Positions 31,566-62,011 of a stretch of 64,000 nucleotides of DNA are shown here, in pieces. The notes under the pieces are model-generated. The model made no database searches. It worked only from the letters and a program-made list of their open reading frames with translations, and was not told the DNA's origin. Source of the DNA: a virus (Duplodnaviria > Heunggongvirae > Uroviricota > Caudoviricetes > Schitoviridae); the IMG/VR virus record IMGVR_UViG_3300024257_000004, one strand, 5' to 3'. The position numbers and the translations under genes were made by a program. Position 1 is the first letter of the stretch. Every line of letters starts with the position of its first letter.

Positions 31566-32432
31566 CTACTTAGTATTAACTATAACCGGGACGTTTCCAC
31601 CCATAAGTGTTGTTGGTAACTTACCATCCCACTTAGTTAATTCTTGTTCTCTAAGTTCAAGTCTTCTAAGCTCTAATAAGTCTTTAGTAATACCTGAAGC
31701 GATCTTCTTATTGTAGTCAGCAATTCTCTTAGCTTCAATCATTTTAATGTTGTACTCACCTTTAGCGATAGCTTCTCTACCCTTTAGTTTAGTTAACTCA
31801 ATTTGAACTTGTGCTTCTTCCTTTTCAATAGCCATTCTTCTTTCTTTAGCTTTTTCAATAGCTTCAGTTACGATTGCTGGATATTCAATACTTCCGATAG
31901 TTACATCAGAGATTTCGATAGGTAAGTGGTCTAGCTTAGGTTTAATTGCATTATATAGTTCTACAGTAATTCTAGCATAATTCGTATTTACTTCATCAAC
32001 ATTGTACTGTGATATAACTTCTCTCGCTGTATTAAGTACTACCATTTTACCGTAAGTATTATATACCTCGTCTGTAGTAACTATCTTATCGTCCATTTGC
32101 ATATCATTAAAGATTGTACTGATAGTTTTGTTATCACCACTAATTCTTCCTCTGAATACTATATGAGCTTTCAATGTAAGTTTATCTTTAAGCAATACTT
32201 TAATTGGTTGAGAATATTTCTTAGTTGTTGTTTGTACTAAAAACATTTTTTCAGGAGTTAAATTCCAAATATTGTTATTTAACCAAACTTTAGATGGAGG
32301 GTATACTTCTGGCTGGAAACCAGTTTTACCCATAATTTTACCTTTGTGTCCTGCTGGGACTTGCGTGTTACAGCCTGTAAATCCAAACATCACCAAACCG
32401 GCTAATACTAATACTATTAATTGTTTTTTCAT
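31566..32432 (-). CDS. Lipoprotein with SPFH/band-7 (prohibitin-like) domain
   Basis: The signal peptide has a lipobox (LVMFGFTGC). The C-terminal region has SPFH-like and coiled-coil features (IEKEEAQVQIELTKLKGREAIAKGEYNIKMIEAKR...). Confidence 0.55.
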   Translation of the reverse strand: MKKQLIVLVLAGLVMFGFTGCNTQVPAGHKGKIMGKTGFQPEVYPPSKVWLNNNIWNLTPEKMFLVQTTTKKYSQPIKVLLKDKLTLKAHIVFRGRISGDNKTISTIFNDMQMDDKIVTTDEVYNTYGKMVVLNTAREVISQYNVDEVNTNYARITVELYNAIKPKLDHLPIEISDVTIGSIEYPAIVTEAIEKAKERRMAIEKEEAQVQIELTKLKGREAIAKGEYNIKMIEAKRIADYNKKIASGITKDLLELRRLELREQELTKWDGKLPTTLMGGNVPVIVNTK

Positions 32433-32688: not shown

Positions 32689-33018
32689 CTATTTTAAATC
32701 TTCAGCTGATATACCGAAGTCTTTGTTAACCGATTTATCAAATGAGTTATCTATTGTTTTAGCTGGTAGTACTTTTGATTGCTCAATTTGAGTATTCGCA
32801 TAGTCAGTTTTAGCTTTAGTATTTACATCCATTTTTACTGGTGATATAATCTGCAGTACTAGTATAACTAATGATACGGTAGTCCACTTATTCCATAATT
32901 TGTTATCACCAGCTTCAAAAGATGCTTGAGACGTTCTCCATGCTTTATACAAAGCAAGTAAGAATGCTGCACTAAAAGCTAGTTTAGCTAACCAGAACCA
33001 TTGTAATGTTAATTCCAT
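32689..33018 (-). CDS. Membrane protein
   Basis: 109 aa with two N-terminal transmembrane helices. Confidence 0.45.
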   Translation of the reverse strand: MELTLQWFWLAKLAFSAAFLLALYKAWRTSQASFEAGDNKLWNKWTTVSLVILVLQIISPVKMDVNTKAKTDYANTQIEQSKVLPAKTIDNSFDKSVNKDFGISAEDLK

Positions 33019-33046
33019 ATTTTCTCCTTTCGTAAAATTGTAATTA

Positions 33047-33454
33047 CTACTTTTTCATCGCTTGTAAGTCTTTAATAGACATTTCAGCTAATTGTGCATT
33101 TTTCTTCTTTTCAATAAGATCATCTATCATATCGTTATGTGAAGTATTTGCTTTAGCTGACTGAATTGCTAATTTATCGTCTTGTTTAGTTTTAATAATA
33201 TCTACAACTAAATTAAGTTGTAGTTCAGCTAATGTATCTGGTTCAGTTGTGTCTAGAAAGGATTTCTTTTTTGACTGCTTAAACTGCGAATGAAGCTCCA
33301 TAGCAATATCATTTAGTTGTGCTGGAGTTAATTGCCATAGCTGTTGTACGTTAAGTACACCTTTAGTTGATTGGAATGTCCAATTGTGTTTTGTTGCTTC
33401 TTTGAATAAATTCATATTATTTCCTTTGTTATTTGTGGTTGCCAATTTGGCCAT
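33047..33454 (-). CDS. Hypothetical protein
   Basis: 135-aa ORF. Confidence 0.45.
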   Translation of the reverse strand: MAKLATTNNKGNNMNLFKEATKHNWTFQSTKGVLNVQQLWQLTPAQLNDIAMELHSQFKQSKKKSFLDTTEPDTLAELQLNLVVDIIKTKQDDKLAIQSAKANTSHNDMIDDLIEKKKNAQLAEMSIKDLQAMKK

Positions 33455-33458
33455 AAGG

Positions 33459-33540
33459 TTACCATATCAGGAATCGAACCTGAGACATCTTGCTTGTTTG
33501 CATTTTAAGGCAAGCGCTCTACCGACTGAGCTATACGGTA
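33459..33540 (-). tRNA. tRNA, type II (long variable arm), Leu-like with UAA in the anticodon loop; anticodon stem-loop irregular (4-bp stem, 8-nt loop)
   Basis: The minus-strand RNA reads UACCGUA-UA-GCUC-AGUCGGUA-GAGC-G-CUUGC-CUUAAAAU-GCAA-(14-nt variable)-UCAGG-UUCGAUU-CCUGA-UAUGGUA-A. The acceptor, D-arm and T-arm are canonical. Confidence 0.6.
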
Positions 33541-33546
33541 ATAGGT

Positions 33547-33692
33547 TACTCGAGTAGGGATTGAACCTACGGCCTTCATCGTGTAATGGTAAATCTGCTA
33601 GGATTTGAACCTAGAACCCCTAGACTAAGCTAGTGCTCTAACCAGTTGAGCTACAGATTTTGGATGACGCTCTACCACTGAGCTACCGAGTA
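33547..33692 (-). tRNA. tRNA-like gene interrupted in its anticodon loop by a complete second tRNA gene (outer gene; probable pseudo-tRNA or processed composite)
   Basis: The 5' half reads UACUCGG-UA-GCUC-AGUGGUA-GAGC-G-UCAUC-CA. The 3' half reads UUACAC-GAUGA-AGGCC-GUAGG-UUCAAUC-CCUAC-UCGAGUA-A. The acceptor halves (UACUCGG/UCGAGUA) and anticodon-stem halves (UCAUC/GAUGA) are complementary across a 73-nt insert. Confidence 0.5.
33588..33660 (-). tRNA. tRNA nested inside the anticodon loop of the outer tRNA-like gene (encoded CCA; anticodon arm noncanonical)
   Basis: The RNA reads AAAUCUG-UA-GCUC-AACUGGUUA-GAGC-...-CUAGG-UUCAAAU-CCUAG-CAGAUUU-A-CCA. The acceptor stem, D-arm and T-arm are perfect. 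The anticodon region (ACUAG-CUUAGU-CUAGG) has only a 6-nt loop. Confidence 0.5.
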
Positions 33693-33708
33693 ATGGGTAT
33701 ATAACGTA

Positions 33709-35703
33709 CTAAAATTGTACGTTATATAGTTTTGTTGAATTAGGGTTAGTCACTTTAAGTACTACCTCGTTATTCACTGTAGAGCTGAAGCCTAGTCCAG
33801 CTAATTGTTCATTCGCTGCTTCTACTTTCATTTTAGATGCTAATACTTCGAATACTTTACGGTGTTCATTAAGATTAGCGGCTAAGAATTCGTTATAGAA
33901 TCCTCTAACTTGATCAGTAGTCTTACAACCATCTAGTATAAACATATAATGCTTATTACCGGTAGAGTTATCTTGCCAATGGTTAGGGGATAACATAATA
34001 TTATTTACTTTAACAAACTGCTGAGTTTTAACACCATAAATAGTTTTAGATGACTGAGAATGGGTTAAGTGGTGTGTAATAGTTATATTTCCAGAAGAAT
34101 CCACAACTAATGTCGCTATCCTAACGTTTTCCTTGTCACTAAGTGGTTTATGGTAACTGTATTCAAATACTTCTCCGTTAAACTCAATTTCTGCTTTGAA
34201 ACCTGATGTGGCTCCTCTAGCTGAAAAGTTATTTACAGCGTATTCATATATACCTTGTTTTACTTTACCGTGAGCATGAACAATGTTCTCTACTGCCACT
34301 TTACTACCCGGGCTAGTAATATCAACATCAAGGTTAAATGCTGCATTACCTTTATTTGAGTATTTGATATGACCGTATGGTGATTTACAGTATAAGTCAA
34401 GATCATCTGGATTATCGTTATCTTCATTCCACATAATAGAACACCTAGTTGCTCCGTCTACTTTACCCCCAAATGACTGCACTAGTTGCTTCATAGAGTC
34501 AGTAACGTTACCATTATAAGACCATGTAAAATTGTTATCCCATTTAAGTAAGTGCTTAGACTCATTAATAGGTGCTATAATATTCATAAAGTTGGATTGG
34601 TGTTTGTTATCAACTAAAGCTTCTATAGATTGTGCATTAGGTAATTGATGTGCTAAGAAATCTTCAATTGAGATATCCTGAGCATTATCAGTAGTTGGTT
34701 TCTTAACTTTTACTTCTTGTTTAAGCAGATCTGCTACACCACCTTTCATTAGAGATTGAACTGCAGTATCAGAGAATAATACGTCATTTACATTAACATC
34801 ATGAATAGTTGCATGTCTTCTAGCTAAAGAAGGCTCAAGGTCAAGTTCAGTGATAGTTTCCATTGCTTTATTAATCATACCCTGTGTAATAAGAGATTTA
34901 CTACGTTTATAGTTCTGAGGAGCTACTTTAGCTTCAAAAGACTTAACTGCAGATACTAAGTCGACTCCATTAGATAGGTCCTCAACTAATGTACCAATAA
35001 CTGTGTTCTTGAACCTAGCTGCTGGGTTATTATAATTTTCAAATCCGAAGAGTCTCTTTGTACCAGAGTACGACAGTGATTTGTTAAATAAATCTTTGAA
35101 CTGTTTAACAGCCTTAAGATGCTCGTCCCCTCTGTACAGAGAATTAGATTCAATAAGTTCAATAACATCATTAAGTGCGGATAGTTTAAACGATTCAATA
35201 GCTGTAGTTAACATAGTTGCTGAAGTAGTTGCTTGTCCAGTAATTTCTCCGACACTAGGGCCTTTAAACAGGCTAGAAGGCATCTCACAGTGGAAATGAT
35301 TCCAGTTAATAACTGAACCGTCAGGTAAGGTTTGTTTAGATTCATATGCTCCGTATTTCTTCTCAGAAGCATAAAATACTGAGTGAATAGGTTTAGTTTT
35401 TACGTAAGCTGACATACTATCTGCTACAGCTTGGTACTCATCATCAACAATTATATCCCATACTGAAATAAAGTTACCATCTTTTACTGCTACTAAATTA
35501 CCTACGTTTCTGATAAAGTTCTTACAACATGAACAATCATGCTTAGTGTTAGTGATGTAGGTAGGATTAGTTCCTTCCGGGAACGCATTAAGGTAATGTT
35601 CTTTAATTTCGTCTCTATCGATATTCATTCTGAATAGTGGGTAGTTATTCGCCATATGGTTGAATTGGTTGTGCACTAATTGTGCGAATTGTTTAAAATT
35701 CAT
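33709..35703 (-). CDS. Hypothetical large protein (664 aa)
   Basis: Long ORF with good codon periodicity and no recognised catalytic motif. It is adjacent to the tRNA-like cluster. Confidence 0.55.
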   Translation of the reverse strand: MNFKQFAQLVHNQFNHMANNYPLFRMNIDRDEIKEHYLNAFPEGTNPTYITNTKHDCSCCKNFIRNVGNLVAVKDGNFISVWDIIVDDEYQAVADSMSAYVKTKPIHSVFYASEKKYGAYESKQTLPDGSVINWNHFHCEMPSSLFKGPSVGEITGQATTSATMLTTAIESFKLSALNDVIELIESNSLYRGDEHLKAVKQFKDLFNKSLSYSGTKRLFGFENYNNPAARFKNTVIGTLVEDLSNGVDLVSAVKSFEAKVAPQNYKRSKSLITQGMINKAMETITELDLEPSLARRHATIHDVNVNDVLFSDTAVQSLMKGGVADLLKQEVKVKKPTTDNAQDISIEDFLAHQLPNAQSIEALVDNKHQSNFMNIIAPINESKHLLKWDNNFTWSYNGNVTDSMKQLVQSFGGKVDGATRCSIMWNEDNDNPDDLDLYCKSPYGHIKYSNKGNAAFNLDVDITSPGSKVAVENIVHAHGKVKQGIYEYAVNNFSARGATSGFKAEIEFNGEVFEYSYHKPLSDKENVRIATLVVDSSGNITITHHLTHSQSSKTIYGVKTQQFVKVNNIMLSPNHWQDNSTGNKHYMFILDGCKTTDQVRGFYNEFLAANLNEHRKVFEVLASKMKVEAANEQLAGLGFSSTVNNEVVLKVTNPNSTKLYNVQF

Positions 35704-59733: not shown

Positions 59734-59809
59734 GCTGTTGTAGCTCAGTTGGTAGAGCACCTCACTTGTAATGAGGCGGTCGGTGGTTCAAATCCTCTCA
59801 ACAGCTCCA
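59734..59809 (+). tRNA. tRNA-Thr (anticodon UGU)
   Basis: GCUGUUG-UA-GCUC-AGUUGGU-AGAGC-A-CCUCA-CUUGUAA-UGAGG...CAACAGC-U-CCA. The cloverleaf has a 7-bp acceptor stem and an encoded CCA. Confidence 0.8.
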
Positions 59810-59810
59810 C

Positions 59811-59886
59811 GGGGAATTAGCTCAGCTGGGAGAGCGTCTGCCTTGCACGTAGAAGGTCATCGGTTCGAACCCGATATTCTCCACCA
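59811..59886 (+). tRNA. tRNA-Ala (anticodon UGC)
   Basis: GGGGAAU-UA-GCUC-AGCUGGGA-GAGC-G-UCUGC-CUUGCAC-GUAGA-AGGUC-AUCGG-UUCGAAC-CCGAU-AUUCUCC-A-CCA. A G3:U70 pair is present, as expected for tRNA-Ala. Confidence 0.85.
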
Positions 59887-60022
59887 TATGAATTTATTAG
59901 ACACTGATTATGGAACCGGTAAATTAACTGGGGACTATTGAGTTAGAACACAATCTCTGTTCCGTGAATTCACAACACATATCTGCTCCGCCTCTCTATG
60001 AAGCGCAACCGAGCAGGTCTTT

Positions 60023-60097
60023 GGTCCCTTCATCTAATGGTTAGGATTTTGGATTTTCATTCCAACCATAGGAGTTCGAATCTCCTAGGGATCACCA
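60023..60097 (+). tRNA. tRNA-Glu (anticodon UUC)
   Basis: GGUCCCU-UC-AUCU-AAUGGUUA-GGAU-U-UUGGA-UUUUCAU-UCCAA-CCAU-AGGAG-UUCGAAU-CUCCU-AGGGAUC-A-CCA. Confidence 0.8.
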
Positions 60098-60100
60098 TAT

Positions 60101-60174
60101 TGACGTATCGCCAAGCGGTAAGGCCGTAGCTTTTGGTGCTACTATCCTAGGTTCGATCCCTAGTGCGTCATCCA
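60101..60174 (+). tRNA. tRNA-Gln (anticodon UUG)
   Basis: UGACGUA...GUAGC-UUUUGGU-GCUAC-UAUC-CUAGG-UUCGAUC-CCUAG-UGCGUCA-U-CCA. Confidence 0.8.
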
Positions 60175-60189
60175 TAAATAATAATAAGT

Positions 60190-60266
60190 GCGGTTGTAGT
60201 TTAGTTGGTTAGAATGCCTGCCTGTCACGCAGGAGGTCGCGAGTTCGAGTCTCGTCAACCGCGCCA
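60190..60266 (+). tRNA. tRNA-Asp (anticodon GUC)
   Basis: GCGGUUG-UA-GUUU-AGUUGGUUA-GAAU-G-CCUGC-CUGUCAC-GCAGG-AGGUC-GCGAG-UUCGAGU-CUCGU-CAACCGC-G-CCA. Confidence 0.85.
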
Positions 60267-60271
60267 CTTTT

Positions 60272-60347
60272 TCCGAATTAGCTCAGTTGGTAGAGCGCAC
60301 GACTGTTAATCGTGTTGTCGATGGTTCGAGCCCATCATTCGGAGCCA
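60272..60347 (+). tRNA. tRNA-Asn (anticodon GUU)
   Basis: UCCGAAU-UA-GCUC-AGUUGGU-AGAGC-G-CACGA-CUGUUAA-UCGUG-UUGUC-GAUGG-UUCGAGC-CCAUC-AUUCGGA-G-CCA. Confidence 0.85.
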
Positions 60348-60362
60348 CAAATTTAAAATGTA

Positions 60363-60450
60363 GAGAGTTGACAGAGTTGGTCGAATGTACCGGTTTTGAA
60401 AACCGGCGAGGTTTACGCCTCCAGCGGTTCGAATCCGCTACTCTCTGCCA
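60363..60450 (+). tRNA. tRNA-Ser (anticodon UGA), type II with long variable arm
   Basis: AGAGAGU...CCGGU-UUUGAAA-ACCGG-(variable arm CGAGGUUUACGCCUCC)-AGCGG-UUCGAAU-CCGCU-ACUCUCU-G-CCA. Confidence 0.8.
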
Positions 60451-60974: not shown

Positions 60975-61313
60975 GTGAATTGGAGGCGCTCTAGAGAGTA
61001 TAGGGTTTGGAGAGCCTCAGTTGTTCGAAAAGGTAAAGTGTGTCATATATGCAAGTCAAGTCGTAGAAGACAGGCTCACCATATAAAGAACGGATCGCAT
61101 CACCCTGAAAGTAGGTACGACGTAGATAACGGTGTAGTACTTTGCAGAGACTGTCATTCACAACTGCATAACAATTACAAGCATAGTTATAGGATGAAAA
61201 CTACTGATAAAGACTGGGATAATTTCAAAGCTTTAGCTAACTATTATATTCAATTAGGTAAACTACAATATATAAAACAGTATAATAGGGAATTACATGG
61301 TAGTAGGTTATAA
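60975..61313 (+). CDS. HNH endonuclease
   Basis: 112 aa with the motif CHICKSSRRRQAHHIKNGSHHPESRYDVDNGVVLCRDCHSQLH (C..C...HH...N...C..C..H). Confidence 0.75.
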   Translation: MNWRRSREYRVWRASVVRKGKVCHICKSSRRRQAHHIKNGSHHPESRYDVDNGVVLCRDCHSQLHNNYKHSYRMKTTDKDWDNFKALANYYIQLGKLQYIKQYNRELHGSRL

Positions 61314-61497
61314 GTTTGATGATGTATATCCAAGTAAGTTGGACGAAGTAATAGACTACGTAGAGGATGAGTTAGTTCGTAGTACAGAACTCACAGGTAT
61401 AGGCTATACTGCGGTGTACTACCTGAACGATAACGGTACTATATACGCTGATGTGTTTGAAGAGCTGATTGAGTCAGATGAGTTTCCTACGAACTAA
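61297..61497 (+). CDS. Hypothetical acidic protein
   Basis: 66-aa ORF. Confidence 0.4.
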   Translation: MVVGYKFDDVYPSKLDEVIDYVEDELVRSTELTGIGYTAVYYLNDNGTIYADVFEELIESDEFPTN

Positions 61498-62011
61498 TGA
61501 CGACGGAACCGTTACAGGTAGACGTAATAGTAAAAAGAAGAAGACATACCCAAGGAAAGCTGAGGGCATAGTCTACATTATAAAGAGTAAACTTAGATGT
61601 GGTACTGTGTTATATAAGATAGGGTACACTACTAGACGTGGGATCAATGAACGGTTAGCTGAGAACTTACTAGGATTCTTTACACAATACAGGTATATCC
61701 CAGAAACAGACGTACGTAAATATAGTAAAACTCCATATTACTCGGAAGTAGAGGCGCTACTACATAGAGGTTACAACGACGTTAGGTATGTATTTGATAA
61801 GAAGTTCGGAGGCAGTACTGAATGGTTCCATATAGAAGACGAAGAATCGCTGATAAAAGCTTATGAAGAAATTATGGCTGATCCGCTAGACTACGTAACA
61901 CCCACCAAATCAGCTTCAGCTAAGCAAGAAGAGCTAGCTGAAGAAGACGCTACCCAAGCAAGTATGATGGATATTGAACCTGTCAATATGATGGATATCG
62001 ACTACACTTAA
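61469..62011 (+). CDS. GIY-YIG-like (T5orf172-type) domain protein
   Basis: GIVYIIKSKLRCGTVLYKIGYTTRRGINERL has a GIY...YKIGYT...R...E arrangement, typical of T5orf172 and Meiotically up-regulated 113-like GIY-YIG domains. Confidence 0.55.
   Translation: MSQMSFLRTNDDGTVTGRRNSKKKKTYPRKAEGIVYIIKSKLRCGTVLYKIGYTTRRGINERLAENLLGFFTQYRYIPETDVRKYSKTPYYSEVEALLHRGYNDVRYVFDKKFGGSTEWFHIEDEESLIKAYEEIMADPLDYVTPTKSASAKQEELAEEDATQASMMDIEPVNMMDIDYT

Follow-up and report, generated by a model that had tools for sequence, protein, structure and literature searches.

A complete tRNA-shaped gene within the anticodon loop of a tRNA-Val-type gene, adjacent to a DUF8224 gene in a marine phage

Background

Splicing of tRNAs by proteins, like split and permuted tRNAs, is considered a feature of archaea or eukaryotes. 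Group I introns are, to our knowledge, the only established class of intervening sequences in bacterial-type tRNA genes, and we know of no bacterial virus that possesses a tRNA splicing endonuclease. Here we describe an interrupted tRNA gene from a marine, AT-rich phage of the Schitoviridae (about 36% G+C; IMG/VR record IMGVR_UViG_3300024257_000004), of which a stretch of 64,000 nt was analysed, called the window in the following. On the minus strand of this window a complete tRNA-shaped gene is located within the anticodon loop of an outer gene of the tRNA-Val(UAC) type. The locus is a compound tRNA-in-tRNA gene and belongs to a conserved module of three RNAs which lies directly 3' of the gene for a DUF8224 protein.

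Several described systems resemble this locus in part. Archaea and some algae have tRNA genes that contain introns or are split or permuted (introns with a bulge-helix-bulge (BHB) motif, Nanoarchaeum, Cyanidioschyzon), in which the interruption is likewise found in or near the anticodon loop and the acceptor and anticodon stems keep the halves together; their known maturation consists of the removal of the insert and joining by an RNA ligase. In contrast to these, the insert described here is a complete, CCA-ended cloverleaf and is positioned 5' of the anticodon and not at 37/38, and the halves stand in the normal order and in cis. A BHB intron was rejected as an explanation, as the insert is bordered by the two ends of a 7-bp acceptor stem, without a BHB motif, and lies at 32/33, not 37/38. 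Group I introns also reside within the anticodon loop, but the insert of 75 nt is far shorter than the ribozyme (usually >200 nt) and it folds as a tRNA. This candidate was discarded on account of the insert length and because Rfam yielded no intron family at E <= 10 in positions 33000-34200. The polycistronic tRNA precursors of the T4 type share the release of tRNAs by RNase P and 3' processing; however, the known ones are tandem, not nested, and the freeing of one tRNA from a tandem precursor leaves the others uncut, unlike in the nested locus.

Two further systems concern tRNA-like RNAs with unusual properties. The YrlA Y RNAs of bacteria and phages are tRNA-like RNAs which partner the protein Ro60 (Chen et al. 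2014, PMC4201824). As in our case, a tRNA-shaped and probably non-decoding RNA is encoded there beside a specific protein gene, but in YrlA the acceptor end is closed and a stem for Ro binding is present, whereas both units described here have open acceptor stems. A Y RNA in the strict sense was rejected, since no TROVE or other Pfam match was found in the neighbouring proteins, no Y-RNA family of Rfam matched at E <= 10 and the model of DUF8224 is without a HEAT ring. Some phage tRNAs escape anticodon nucleases through altered anticodon loops (van den Berg et al. 2023, PMC10264068). These carry point changes in the 7-nt loops of working decoders, whereas the loops described here measure 6, 16 or 82 nt. 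Such tRNAs and natural tRNAs with 8-nt loops likewise depart from the loop pattern of the host, and some inner tRNAs of the loci reported below have A33 (L244 and L257; L-numbers are the labels of the loci retrieved in this analysis).

Results and discussion

Structure of the compound gene

The outer gene is divided into two halves (Table 1). Its 5' half begins with the acceptor strand UACUCGG (33692-33686), followed by U8 A9, the D arm GCUC-AGUGGUA-GAGC, G26, the anticodon-stem strand UCAUC (33667-33663), C32 and one extra A. The 3' half starts with U33 U34 A35 C36 A37 C38, continues with the second anticodon-stem strand GAUGA (33580-33576) and the variable loop AGGCC, and ends with the T arm GUAGG-UUCAAUC-CCUAC, the acceptor strand UCGAGUA (33553-33547), A73 and CC. 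The two acceptor strands pair over their full length, with one G-U. The strands of the anticodon stem are separated by 82 nt, which consist of C32 and the extra A, the inner unit of 74 nt and UUACAC; this stretch takes the place of a continuous 7-nt anticodon loop. Exact removal of the inner tRNA yields an outer loop of 8 nt (CA+UUACAC) and removal of 75 nt yields the canonical 7-nt loop CUUACAC.

Table 1. Positions of the features discussed in the text, in window coordinates
Feature	Position	Strand	Basis or remark
Outer tRNA-Val(UAC)-type gene, whole	33544-33692	-	21/21 stem pairs (strict cloverleaf parser)
Outer gene, 5' half	33661..33692	-	sequence read; ARAGORN with introns; BLAST of spliced form to phage tRNA-Val
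Inner tRNA-shaped unit, 74 nt	33587..33660	-	ARAGORN tRNA-??? (ta); Rfam RF00005 56.2 bits
Outer gene, 3' half	33544..33586	-	sequence read; ARAGORN with introns; BLAST; parser
Second tRNA-like gene, perfect cloverleaf	33457..33540	-	Rfam tRNA 61.9 bits, 10 nt in place of 1
DUF8224 gene (PF26675, phrog_1735), 664 aa	33709..35703	-	stop codon 16 nt before outer tRNA
12-bp hairpin UAUAUAACGUAC...GUACGUUAUAUA	33698..33728	.	spans DUF8224 stop codon, directly 5' of outer tRNA
Open reading frame 3' of the module	33047-33454	-	
SPFH/Band_7 gene	31566-32432		about 1 kb downstream of the module
Cluster of seven canonical tRNAs	59734-60450	+	26 kb from the module
HNH and T5orf172 (GIY-YIG-like) endonuclease reading frames	60975-62011	+	directly after the seven-tRNA cluster

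The acceptor stem of the inner unit is AAAUCUG/CAGAUUU (7 bp) and its T arm CUAGG-UUCAAAU-CCUAG; the unit also has a D arm, and CCA is encoded after A73. The anticodon arm is reduced to the 4-bp stem CUAG/CUAG plus an A.G pair, with a 6-nt loop CUUAGU. The unit thus does not qualify as a decoding tRNA, for which we expected a 5-bp anticodon stem, a 7-nt loop, U33 and a purine at 37. The score obtained with the Rfam tRNA model RF00005 is nevertheless above the threshold of 29 bits, with 6 nt in place of 9 at positions 31-39.

With default settings ARAGORN recognises no more than the inner unit and the neighbouring gene, each labelled tRNA-???. When introns are allowed, it reports the outer gene as a 74-nt tRNA-Val(UAC) in which positions 32 and 33 are separated by an insert of 75 nt. 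The spliced outer sequence, from which these 75 nt were taken out, aligns with annotated phage tRNA-Val at 80-84% identity and the alignment is unbroken over the junction. In E. coli, the identity set of valyl-tRNA synthetase is A35, C36 and A73. All three are present in the outer gene, which is, judged by homology, a putative tRNA-Val. By contrast, BLAST searches with the inner unit and the neighbouring gene gave generic matches of 72-78% to phage tRNA-Lys, Thr, Asn and Pro, from which no isotype could be assigned. Both acceptor stems and both T arms are present in the minimum free energy fold, but its z-score of only -1.0 is as usual for tRNAs and uninformative.

The third member of the module, here called the second tRNA-like gene, has an anticodon stem CUUGC/GCAAG which closes a 16-nt loop CUUAAAAUGCAAACAA, and ends with A73 followed by CC. 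A BHB motif (4-bp helix, 3-nt bulges) could not be drawn for this 16-nt loop by manual inspection.

A preliminary description of the window had proposed a tRNA-shaped gene inside the anticodon loop of another tRNA gene, and the reading of the sequence, ARAGORN with introns and BLAST agree in this. The complementarity of the outer halves that it had pointed out (UCAUC/GAUGA and the acceptor strand UCGAGUA) extends to 21 of 21 stem pairs, and no single conventional tRNA was found by predictors asked to look for one (ARAGORN in default and intron modes, Rfam). The inner gene does possess its own 7-bp acceptor stem, D and T arms and CCA; only its length of 73 nt has to be corrected, to 74 nt including the CCA. 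Similarly, all three minus-strand tRNAs are noncanonical and the inner loop has 6 nt as described, whereas the 8-nt loop given for the neighbouring gene is an alternative fold of ARAGORN, the Rfam alignment showing 16 nt. The seven plus-strand tRNAs are canonical, as had been said, and all of them encode CCA. A permuted tRNA, which had been considered as well, finds no support, the halves standing in normal order.

The probability of finding 12 complementary positions at fixed places by chance is about 8e-6. Two search patterns, one of two D arms with 12-20 nt between them and one of two T arms with 25-40 nt between them, gave one match each in the window, compared to 0 in 100 shuffles. About ten assemblies, obtained from several samples in ENA, Logan and JGI, carry the 254-nt intergenic region without a single base difference. 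Because of this agreement among independent assemblies a chimera or another assembly artefact can be ruled out. The window phage has no close relative among the GenBank phages or in IMG/VR: megablast against the phage collection gave no match for one, and IMG/VR pattern scans with the outer 3' half, the outer 5' half and the 5' part of the inner unit gave 0 matches each. A protein-based retrieval yielded copies at least 99.8% identical, without variation, plus relatives at 59-65% identity.

Nested tRNA genes in other genomes

We assign a gene to the nested, tRNA-in-tRNA class if its outer cloverleaf is complete and if the two strands of the outer anticodon stem enclose 4-10 loop nt and an inner, tRNA-shaped unit of 69-77 nt. 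The window belongs to this class with 21/21 outer pairs, a 74-nt inner unit and 8 loop nt, and so do 13 other families. Altogether, at least 14 independent nested-tRNA families were found in viral contigs, and about five further cases in metagenome-assembled genomes (MAGs). A scan of IMG/VR with the two-D-arm pattern gave at least 118 loci with 125 pattern matches, and one for T-arm pairs gave 119 loci; the counts of nested loci and families from these scans refer to the matches listed. In 49 of the 125 two-D-arm matches a complete tRNA begins at the expected inner position, and at least about 16 loci, from about 11 families, continue directly after this inner tRNA with a 3' half of perfect complementarity. 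The T-arm-pair scan contributed a single nested case, L326, most of its other loci being other objects. Further cases are L056 among the protein-based loci and L444, L453, L485, L501 and L537 in MAG contigs. The cloverleaf parser was restricted to hits with 21/21 pairs, as hits at 19-20/21 were mostly false positives in AT-rich DNA, and the inner tRNAs were confirmed independently by Rfam.

In the 14 families, 97 of 98 cells of the outer acceptor stem and 67 of 70 of the anticodon stem are paired, with 4-6 pair types per position; this statistic is partly circular, since the parser selected the families on pairing, while the pattern used for discovery had no pairing requirement. In four families exact removal of the inner tRNA, from its 5' end to the CCA, leaves a canonical 7-nt loop (insert site marked by a caret): CUUUU^AA of a Lys UUU in L191, where the inner tRNA is Asn GUU; CUU^CUAA of an Arg UCU in L252, with an inner Phe GAA; CUG^UUAA of an Asn GUU in L194; and CUU^UUAA of a Lys UUU in L256. 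The insert is found at 32/33 in the window and at 34/35 or 36/37 elsewhere.

Among the inner units there are canonical decoders (Asn, Phe, Ile, His) as well as forms with a 6-nt loop (window, L208, L237/L283, L241), and UAG is contained in the 6-nt loops of the window, L283 and L241. The inner unit of L256 is without a real anticodon arm, and the inserts of L271 and L392 consist of a T-arm hairpin only. Ten of 14 inner units end in CCA. Diverged members exist for the families L244/L257, L237/L283 and L186/L252. Between L237 and L283 the inner anticodon changes from CAG to UAG, both Leu, alongside a change of a stem pair from G-U to A-U. Given its recurrence in many unrelated phages, often beside the DUF8224 gene, the nested layout looks less like a broken gene than like a selected form in which tRNA-like RNAs are made. 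For eight nested units no counterpart in cultured phages was detected by near or distant BLAST. No description of nested phage tRNAs was found in full-text literature searches, and this gene architecture has apparently not been described before. Since standard tRNA finders miss the outer genes, the tRNA repertoires of phages are under-counted.

Other loci from these searches show related arrangements. Inserts of 29-52 nt in a tRNA anticodon loop occur in L271 (530-648, minus-strand gene), L392 (4219-4335, +), L187 (1693-1786) and L213 (4499-4592); the T-arm-hairpin-only inserts of L271 and L392 may be reduced inner tRNAs. In L252 (984-1545), and also in L186 and L239, a tRNA carries a 496-nt anticodon-loop insert with an open reading frame of 140 aa (1064-1483). 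No intron family of Rfam matched the L252 insert at the gathering threshold, and it may represent an unrecognised intron or a mobile element. In L214, L192, L206 and L188 a complete tRNA is directly preceded by a fused tRNA 5' half, which reaches from the acceptor strand to the anticodon loop and for which a matching 3' half is missing within 1.5 kb; such fusions may have remained from nested genes or may form a class of their own.

One family (L244:1702-1773, L257, L300) has inner tRNAs with A33 in place of the universal U33, and between relatives the inner anticodon switches from His GUG to Asn GUU with the nested architecture unchanged. In the MAG loci L444 (2394-2548), L453 (1456-1613) and L537 (1-160) the outer anticodon stem is 5-6 bp longer and bears an inner tRNA-Val(GAC) at its tip. 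This geometry differs from that of the phage cases; the MAGs are those assigned to Saccharibacteria and Gammaproteobacteria and one further MAG (L537).

Linkage to the DUF8224 gene

DUF8224 is present in about 1% of phage records. According to an AlphaFold2 model, the protein is predicted to contain a TerD-like calcium-binding beta-sandwich with the invariant residues D436, D459, D461, E472 and N473. Also invariant are C57/C60, H136 and an S-P-N-x-W...G-N-x-H motif (S572-H585), in which K584 is nearly invariant. Besides the TerD-like beta-sandwich no RNA-binding or nuclease/ligase fold was recognised in the model. Searches against PDB and NCBIfam gave no informative match, and a weak match to Cmr5 (E = 0.0056) was discounted.

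The loci of the two IMG/VR scans had been retrieved by tRNA patterns alone. When they were searched by tblastn with the DUF8224 protein of the window, homologs were found in 9 of 118 D-arm-pair loci and in none of the 119 T-arm-pair loci, again among the matches listed. On the same basis DUF8224 lies in approximately 8 of 16 nested loci versus 1 of 221 others (Fisher p = 5e-10) or, counted by family, in 6 of 11 versus 1 of 200 (p = 3e-8). The homologs beside nested tRNAs are those of L208 (34% identity, E = 2e-128), L056 (33%), L237 (32%), L221, L224, L241, L271, L279 and L283. Furthermore, the gene order is common to the window, L056 and L208: the stop codon of DUF8224 is followed after 6-16 nt by the nested tRNA and this by a tRNA-like gene with an expanded loop, of 16 nt in the window, 8 nt in L056 and 9 nt in L208. 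A counterpart of this second gene at the same position has a loop of 13 nt in L090. The DUF8224 proteins of the nested-tRNA lineages are mutually only 28-66% identical, therefore the association is either old or has been re-formed repeatedly.

The unusual loops are also linked to this protein. Aberrant cloverleaves, with loops of 8-43 nt, account for 12 of 36 unique matches in DUF8224 loci compared to 17 of 277 in control loci (p = 1e-5). In their 3' part, the DUF8224-linked loops mostly read N-A-C-A-N (UUACAC, AAACAA, GAACUA, AACAU, CACAU, ...AACAA), which corresponds to valine anticodons, and A73 is present in 13 of 14 outer genes.

These findings invite the explanation that the module encodes non-decoding, Val-type tRNA-like RNAs which work with DUF8224 or are processed by it, their loops being deliberately filled with inserts of any size between a few nucleotides and a complete tRNA. 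Such RNAs could be cofactors, substrates, decoys or aminoacyl carriers, comparable to the Y RNAs with Ro60; in a variant, DUF8224 itself would remove the loop insert. We regard this as possible but somewhat doubtful. The enrichment beside nested loci, the common gene order, the excess of aberrant loops, the retained valine identity elements (N-A35-C36-A37 and A73), the recurrence of UAG in 6-nt inner loops and the persistence of the association over DUF8224 identities of 28-66% all speak for it. However, a protein fold suited to RNA binding, cleavage or ligation was not recognised, and the nested tRNAs with canonical loops (L191, L252, L194, L256) are without DUF8224. Moreover, among about 120 loci from the search with the DUF8224 protein only 2 are nested, most of the others having ordinary or no tRNAs. 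The tRNA clusters and DUF8224 may also just share an early-gene region: genes for a CCA-adding enzyme, Tpt1/KptA and transfer-messenger RNA (tmRNA) are found in DUF8224 neighbourhoods too, and because of these a shared genome region for translation and RNA repair is a partial confounder of the linkage.

Immediately beside DUF8224, a phage tmRNA is located in L208 (5296-5678, -; RF00023, 68 bits) and a permuted tmRNA in L271 (679-976, -; RF04321, 64 bits).

Processing of the nested locus

The best explanation of the nested locus is, in our view, that the inner tRNA is excised by end-processing enzymes and that the outer halves are ligated, although we give it a probability somewhat short of even. 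The module would be transcribed together with the flanking genes. RNase P, which recognises the acceptor/T-arm minihelix and RCCA, would cut at the 5' ends of the outer and inner cloverleaves, the inner cut falling at 33660/33661. A 3' endonuclease of the RNase Z/BN or RNase E type, together with trimming, would set the CCA end of the inner unit, which would in this way act as an intervening sequence, taken out by the enzymes that normally process tRNA ends. After cleavage by RNase P the leader bears a 3'-OH, and after cleavage by RNase Z/BN, which is able to cut after CCA, the trailer bears a 5'-phosphate. The outer halves would stay annealed through 12 bp and the tertiary contacts between D and T arms, with 3'-OH and 5'-phosphate facing each other in the anticodon loop. 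Nicks of this type in anticodon loops are sealed by T4 Rnl1, and an ATP-dependent ligase of the Rnl type could join ...UCAUCC(A) to UUACACGAUGA. The sealed product would be a tRNA-Val(UAC) reading GUA, with a loop of 8 nt, or of 7 nt if the extra A is trimmed. As an alternative to sealing, the halves might serve as a tRNA-like RNA of the Val type that is split or does not decode.

The occurrence of nested genes in many phage lineages and the restoration of canonical loops in four families point to this route via RNase P, a 3' nuclease and an RNA-repair ligase. Genes for the joining of RNA ends are found near other nested loci: an RNA ligase and a metallophosphoesterase in L256, an ATP-dependent ligase in L194, and also RlaP and a polynucleotide kinase (PNK)-like AAA_33 protein. 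The 6-nt loop in the window and the degenerate inner units of several families suggest that the inner unit is mainly an excision module and not a decoder; the reduced units retain the parts required by RNase P and the CCA enzymes.

A number of points weigh against excision and ligation. Every processing step has been deduced from established enzymology, and the pairing statistic is in part circular, as stated above. No RNA ligase, PNK or RtcB was detected in the 64-kb window (Pfam scans, 29 open reading frames) or in the 10 kb beyond its right end (precomputed hits). Exact excision leaves a loop of 8 nt in the window and of 8-10 nt in the DUF8224-linked relatives, and 3' processing of the RNase E type normally destroys the nucleotides adjoining the CCA. 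In addition, the second gene (16 nt) as well as L090 (13), L153 (9) and L056b (8) have extra loop nucleotides without an inner tRNA which could guide RNase P; excision by end processing therefore cannot explain the whole module. Finally, the closest relatives, with DUF8224 identities of 62-65%, have no tRNAs at the site, and thus the module is dispensable.

The latter observation leads to the site itself, the intergenic region between DUF8224 and the phrog_2018 gene. In the relatives with 59-65% DUF8224 identity there is mostly a gap of 10-18 nt and no tRNA. L090 has at this site a single tRNA-like gene (Rfam 43 bits) with the 13-nt loop ACUUAAUUAACAA, and in L093 (4460-5359, -) a DUF723 homing-endonuclease-like gene is located there. 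The site appears to be an insertion hotspot.

Such a site would also suit a decaying module without function, in which loop insertions and deletions have inactivated tRNA genes and the nesting results from a selfish or accidental tRNA insertion. In another version, a cleaved tRNA was misjoined by an RNA ligase with a mature, CCA-ended tRNA and the product was then captured. The module is lineage-specific, all relatives at 62-65% having the 10-18 nt gap, and none of its three loops is canonical. The outer T stem of L224 has two mismatches, L229 retains only a 5' half beside a truncated DUF8224, and many loci consist of a 5' half and a tRNA with no 3' half. The insert sites at 32/33, 34/35 and 36/37 are within the anticodon region at places which we take to resemble the cut sites of anticodon nucleases.

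On the other hand, the stems of all three adjacent genes in the window are perfectly paired and all lesions are confined to the anticodon loops, whereas neutral decay would scatter substitutions. The arrangement also persists over deep divergence of the protein and in diverged family members, the loop remainders are canonical in four families, and in L237 versus L283 the inner Leu anticodon is kept while a stem pair changes from G-U to A-U. We consider decay unlikely. The same holds for the disrupted pseudo-tRNA of the preliminary description, given three adjacent genes without stem defects and a module kept beside DUF8224 across 28-66% protein identity.

As a gene structure, the nested locus is a variant of interrupted tRNA genes; it would represent a new mechanism if excision and ligation, or a partnership with DUF8224, were confirmed. 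The more far-reaching proposition is a new class of tRNA-shaped 'introns', in phages and in some bacteria known only as MAGs, which are cut by RNase P and a 3' endonuclease and whose exons are rejoined by RNA-repair ligases, with a subclass tied to DUF8224, the protein being perhaps a dedicated factor for the maturation or use of interrupted Val-type tRNA-like RNAs. We put this forward as a speculative possibility, with clear reservations. If true, the bacterial world would gain its first tRNA splicing pathway that depends on proteins, and a function would be assigned to a widespread phage protein. Excision and ligation would furthermore give phage RNA ligases a housekeeping substrate beyond damage repair. 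The linkage to the nested tRNAs in any case offers a concrete handle on DUF8224, a protein without known function.

Genomic context and further tRNA-like elements

In the window, the three cloverleaves lie between the DUF8224 and phrog_2018 genes and a MoxR-type AAA+ gene is located upstream of the module. The hairpin at the DUF8224 stop codon (Table 1) is reported as terminator-like on the plus strand; on the minus strand it may stabilise the 3' end of the upstream mRNA after an RNase P cut. L090 has an analogous UUCG hairpin at the same place.

These elements recall mRNA punctuation, in which the cloverleaves serve as marks for cuts by RNase P and RNase Z between DUF8224 and the downstream genes and so set the mRNA ends, their loops being irrelevant and free to drift. 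The module fills a 254-nt gap between two genes on the same strand, a hairpin stands between stop codon and first cloverleaf in both the window and L090, the downstream gene has a good ribosome-binding site (RBS) 30 nt past the last cloverleaf, and the conserved parts are those which RNase P needs. But one cloverleaf would be enough for this purpose, and the relatives cope with a 10-nt gap. The nesting, the paired anticodon stems, the N-A-C-A-N motif and the restoration of canonical loops would all stay unexplained. Punctuation as the whole explanation thus seems improbable to us, and excision of the inner tRNA followed by ligation is retained as the preferred reading.

With respect to codon usage, GUA, the codon that the sealed outer tRNA would read, is the commonest Val codon of the phage (217 of 376). 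The preferred Val and Leu codons GUA, UUA and CUA match UAC, UAA and UAG, which follow 'CU' in the three aberrant loops. The canonical tRNAs are encoded on the opposite strand (Table 1).

The open reading frame 3' of the module probably starts at the ATG at 33415 (RBS AAAGGAA; 122 aa), and it is so called in two other assemblies. An alternative ATG at 33454 abuts the second tRNA-like gene, whose CC tail ends at 33457.

The SPFH/Band_7 gene downstream of the module has counterparts in L090 and L208, likewise at a distance of about 1 kb. Burroughs and Aravind reportedly described in 2016 a 'novel tRNA-like molecule' linked to SPFH/Band-7 modules in RNA-repair operons (ligase, RlaP and similar), to which this locus may possibly be related. 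In the window no ligase or RlaP is present, and Band_7 is not enriched together with aberrant tRNAs (2 of 13 loci with them versus 2 of 24 without).

An ARAGORN intron-mode 'Val' with a 40-nt intron in L061 was judged spurious, being AT-rich and having an 8-bp acceptor stem. L319 (512-700, +), L313, L348 and L356 contain 2-4 T-arm-like hairpins (GGTTCRANNCC) which are 45-55 nt apart and are not called by ARAGORN; some of these arrays are enclosed by a shared acceptor-like helix.

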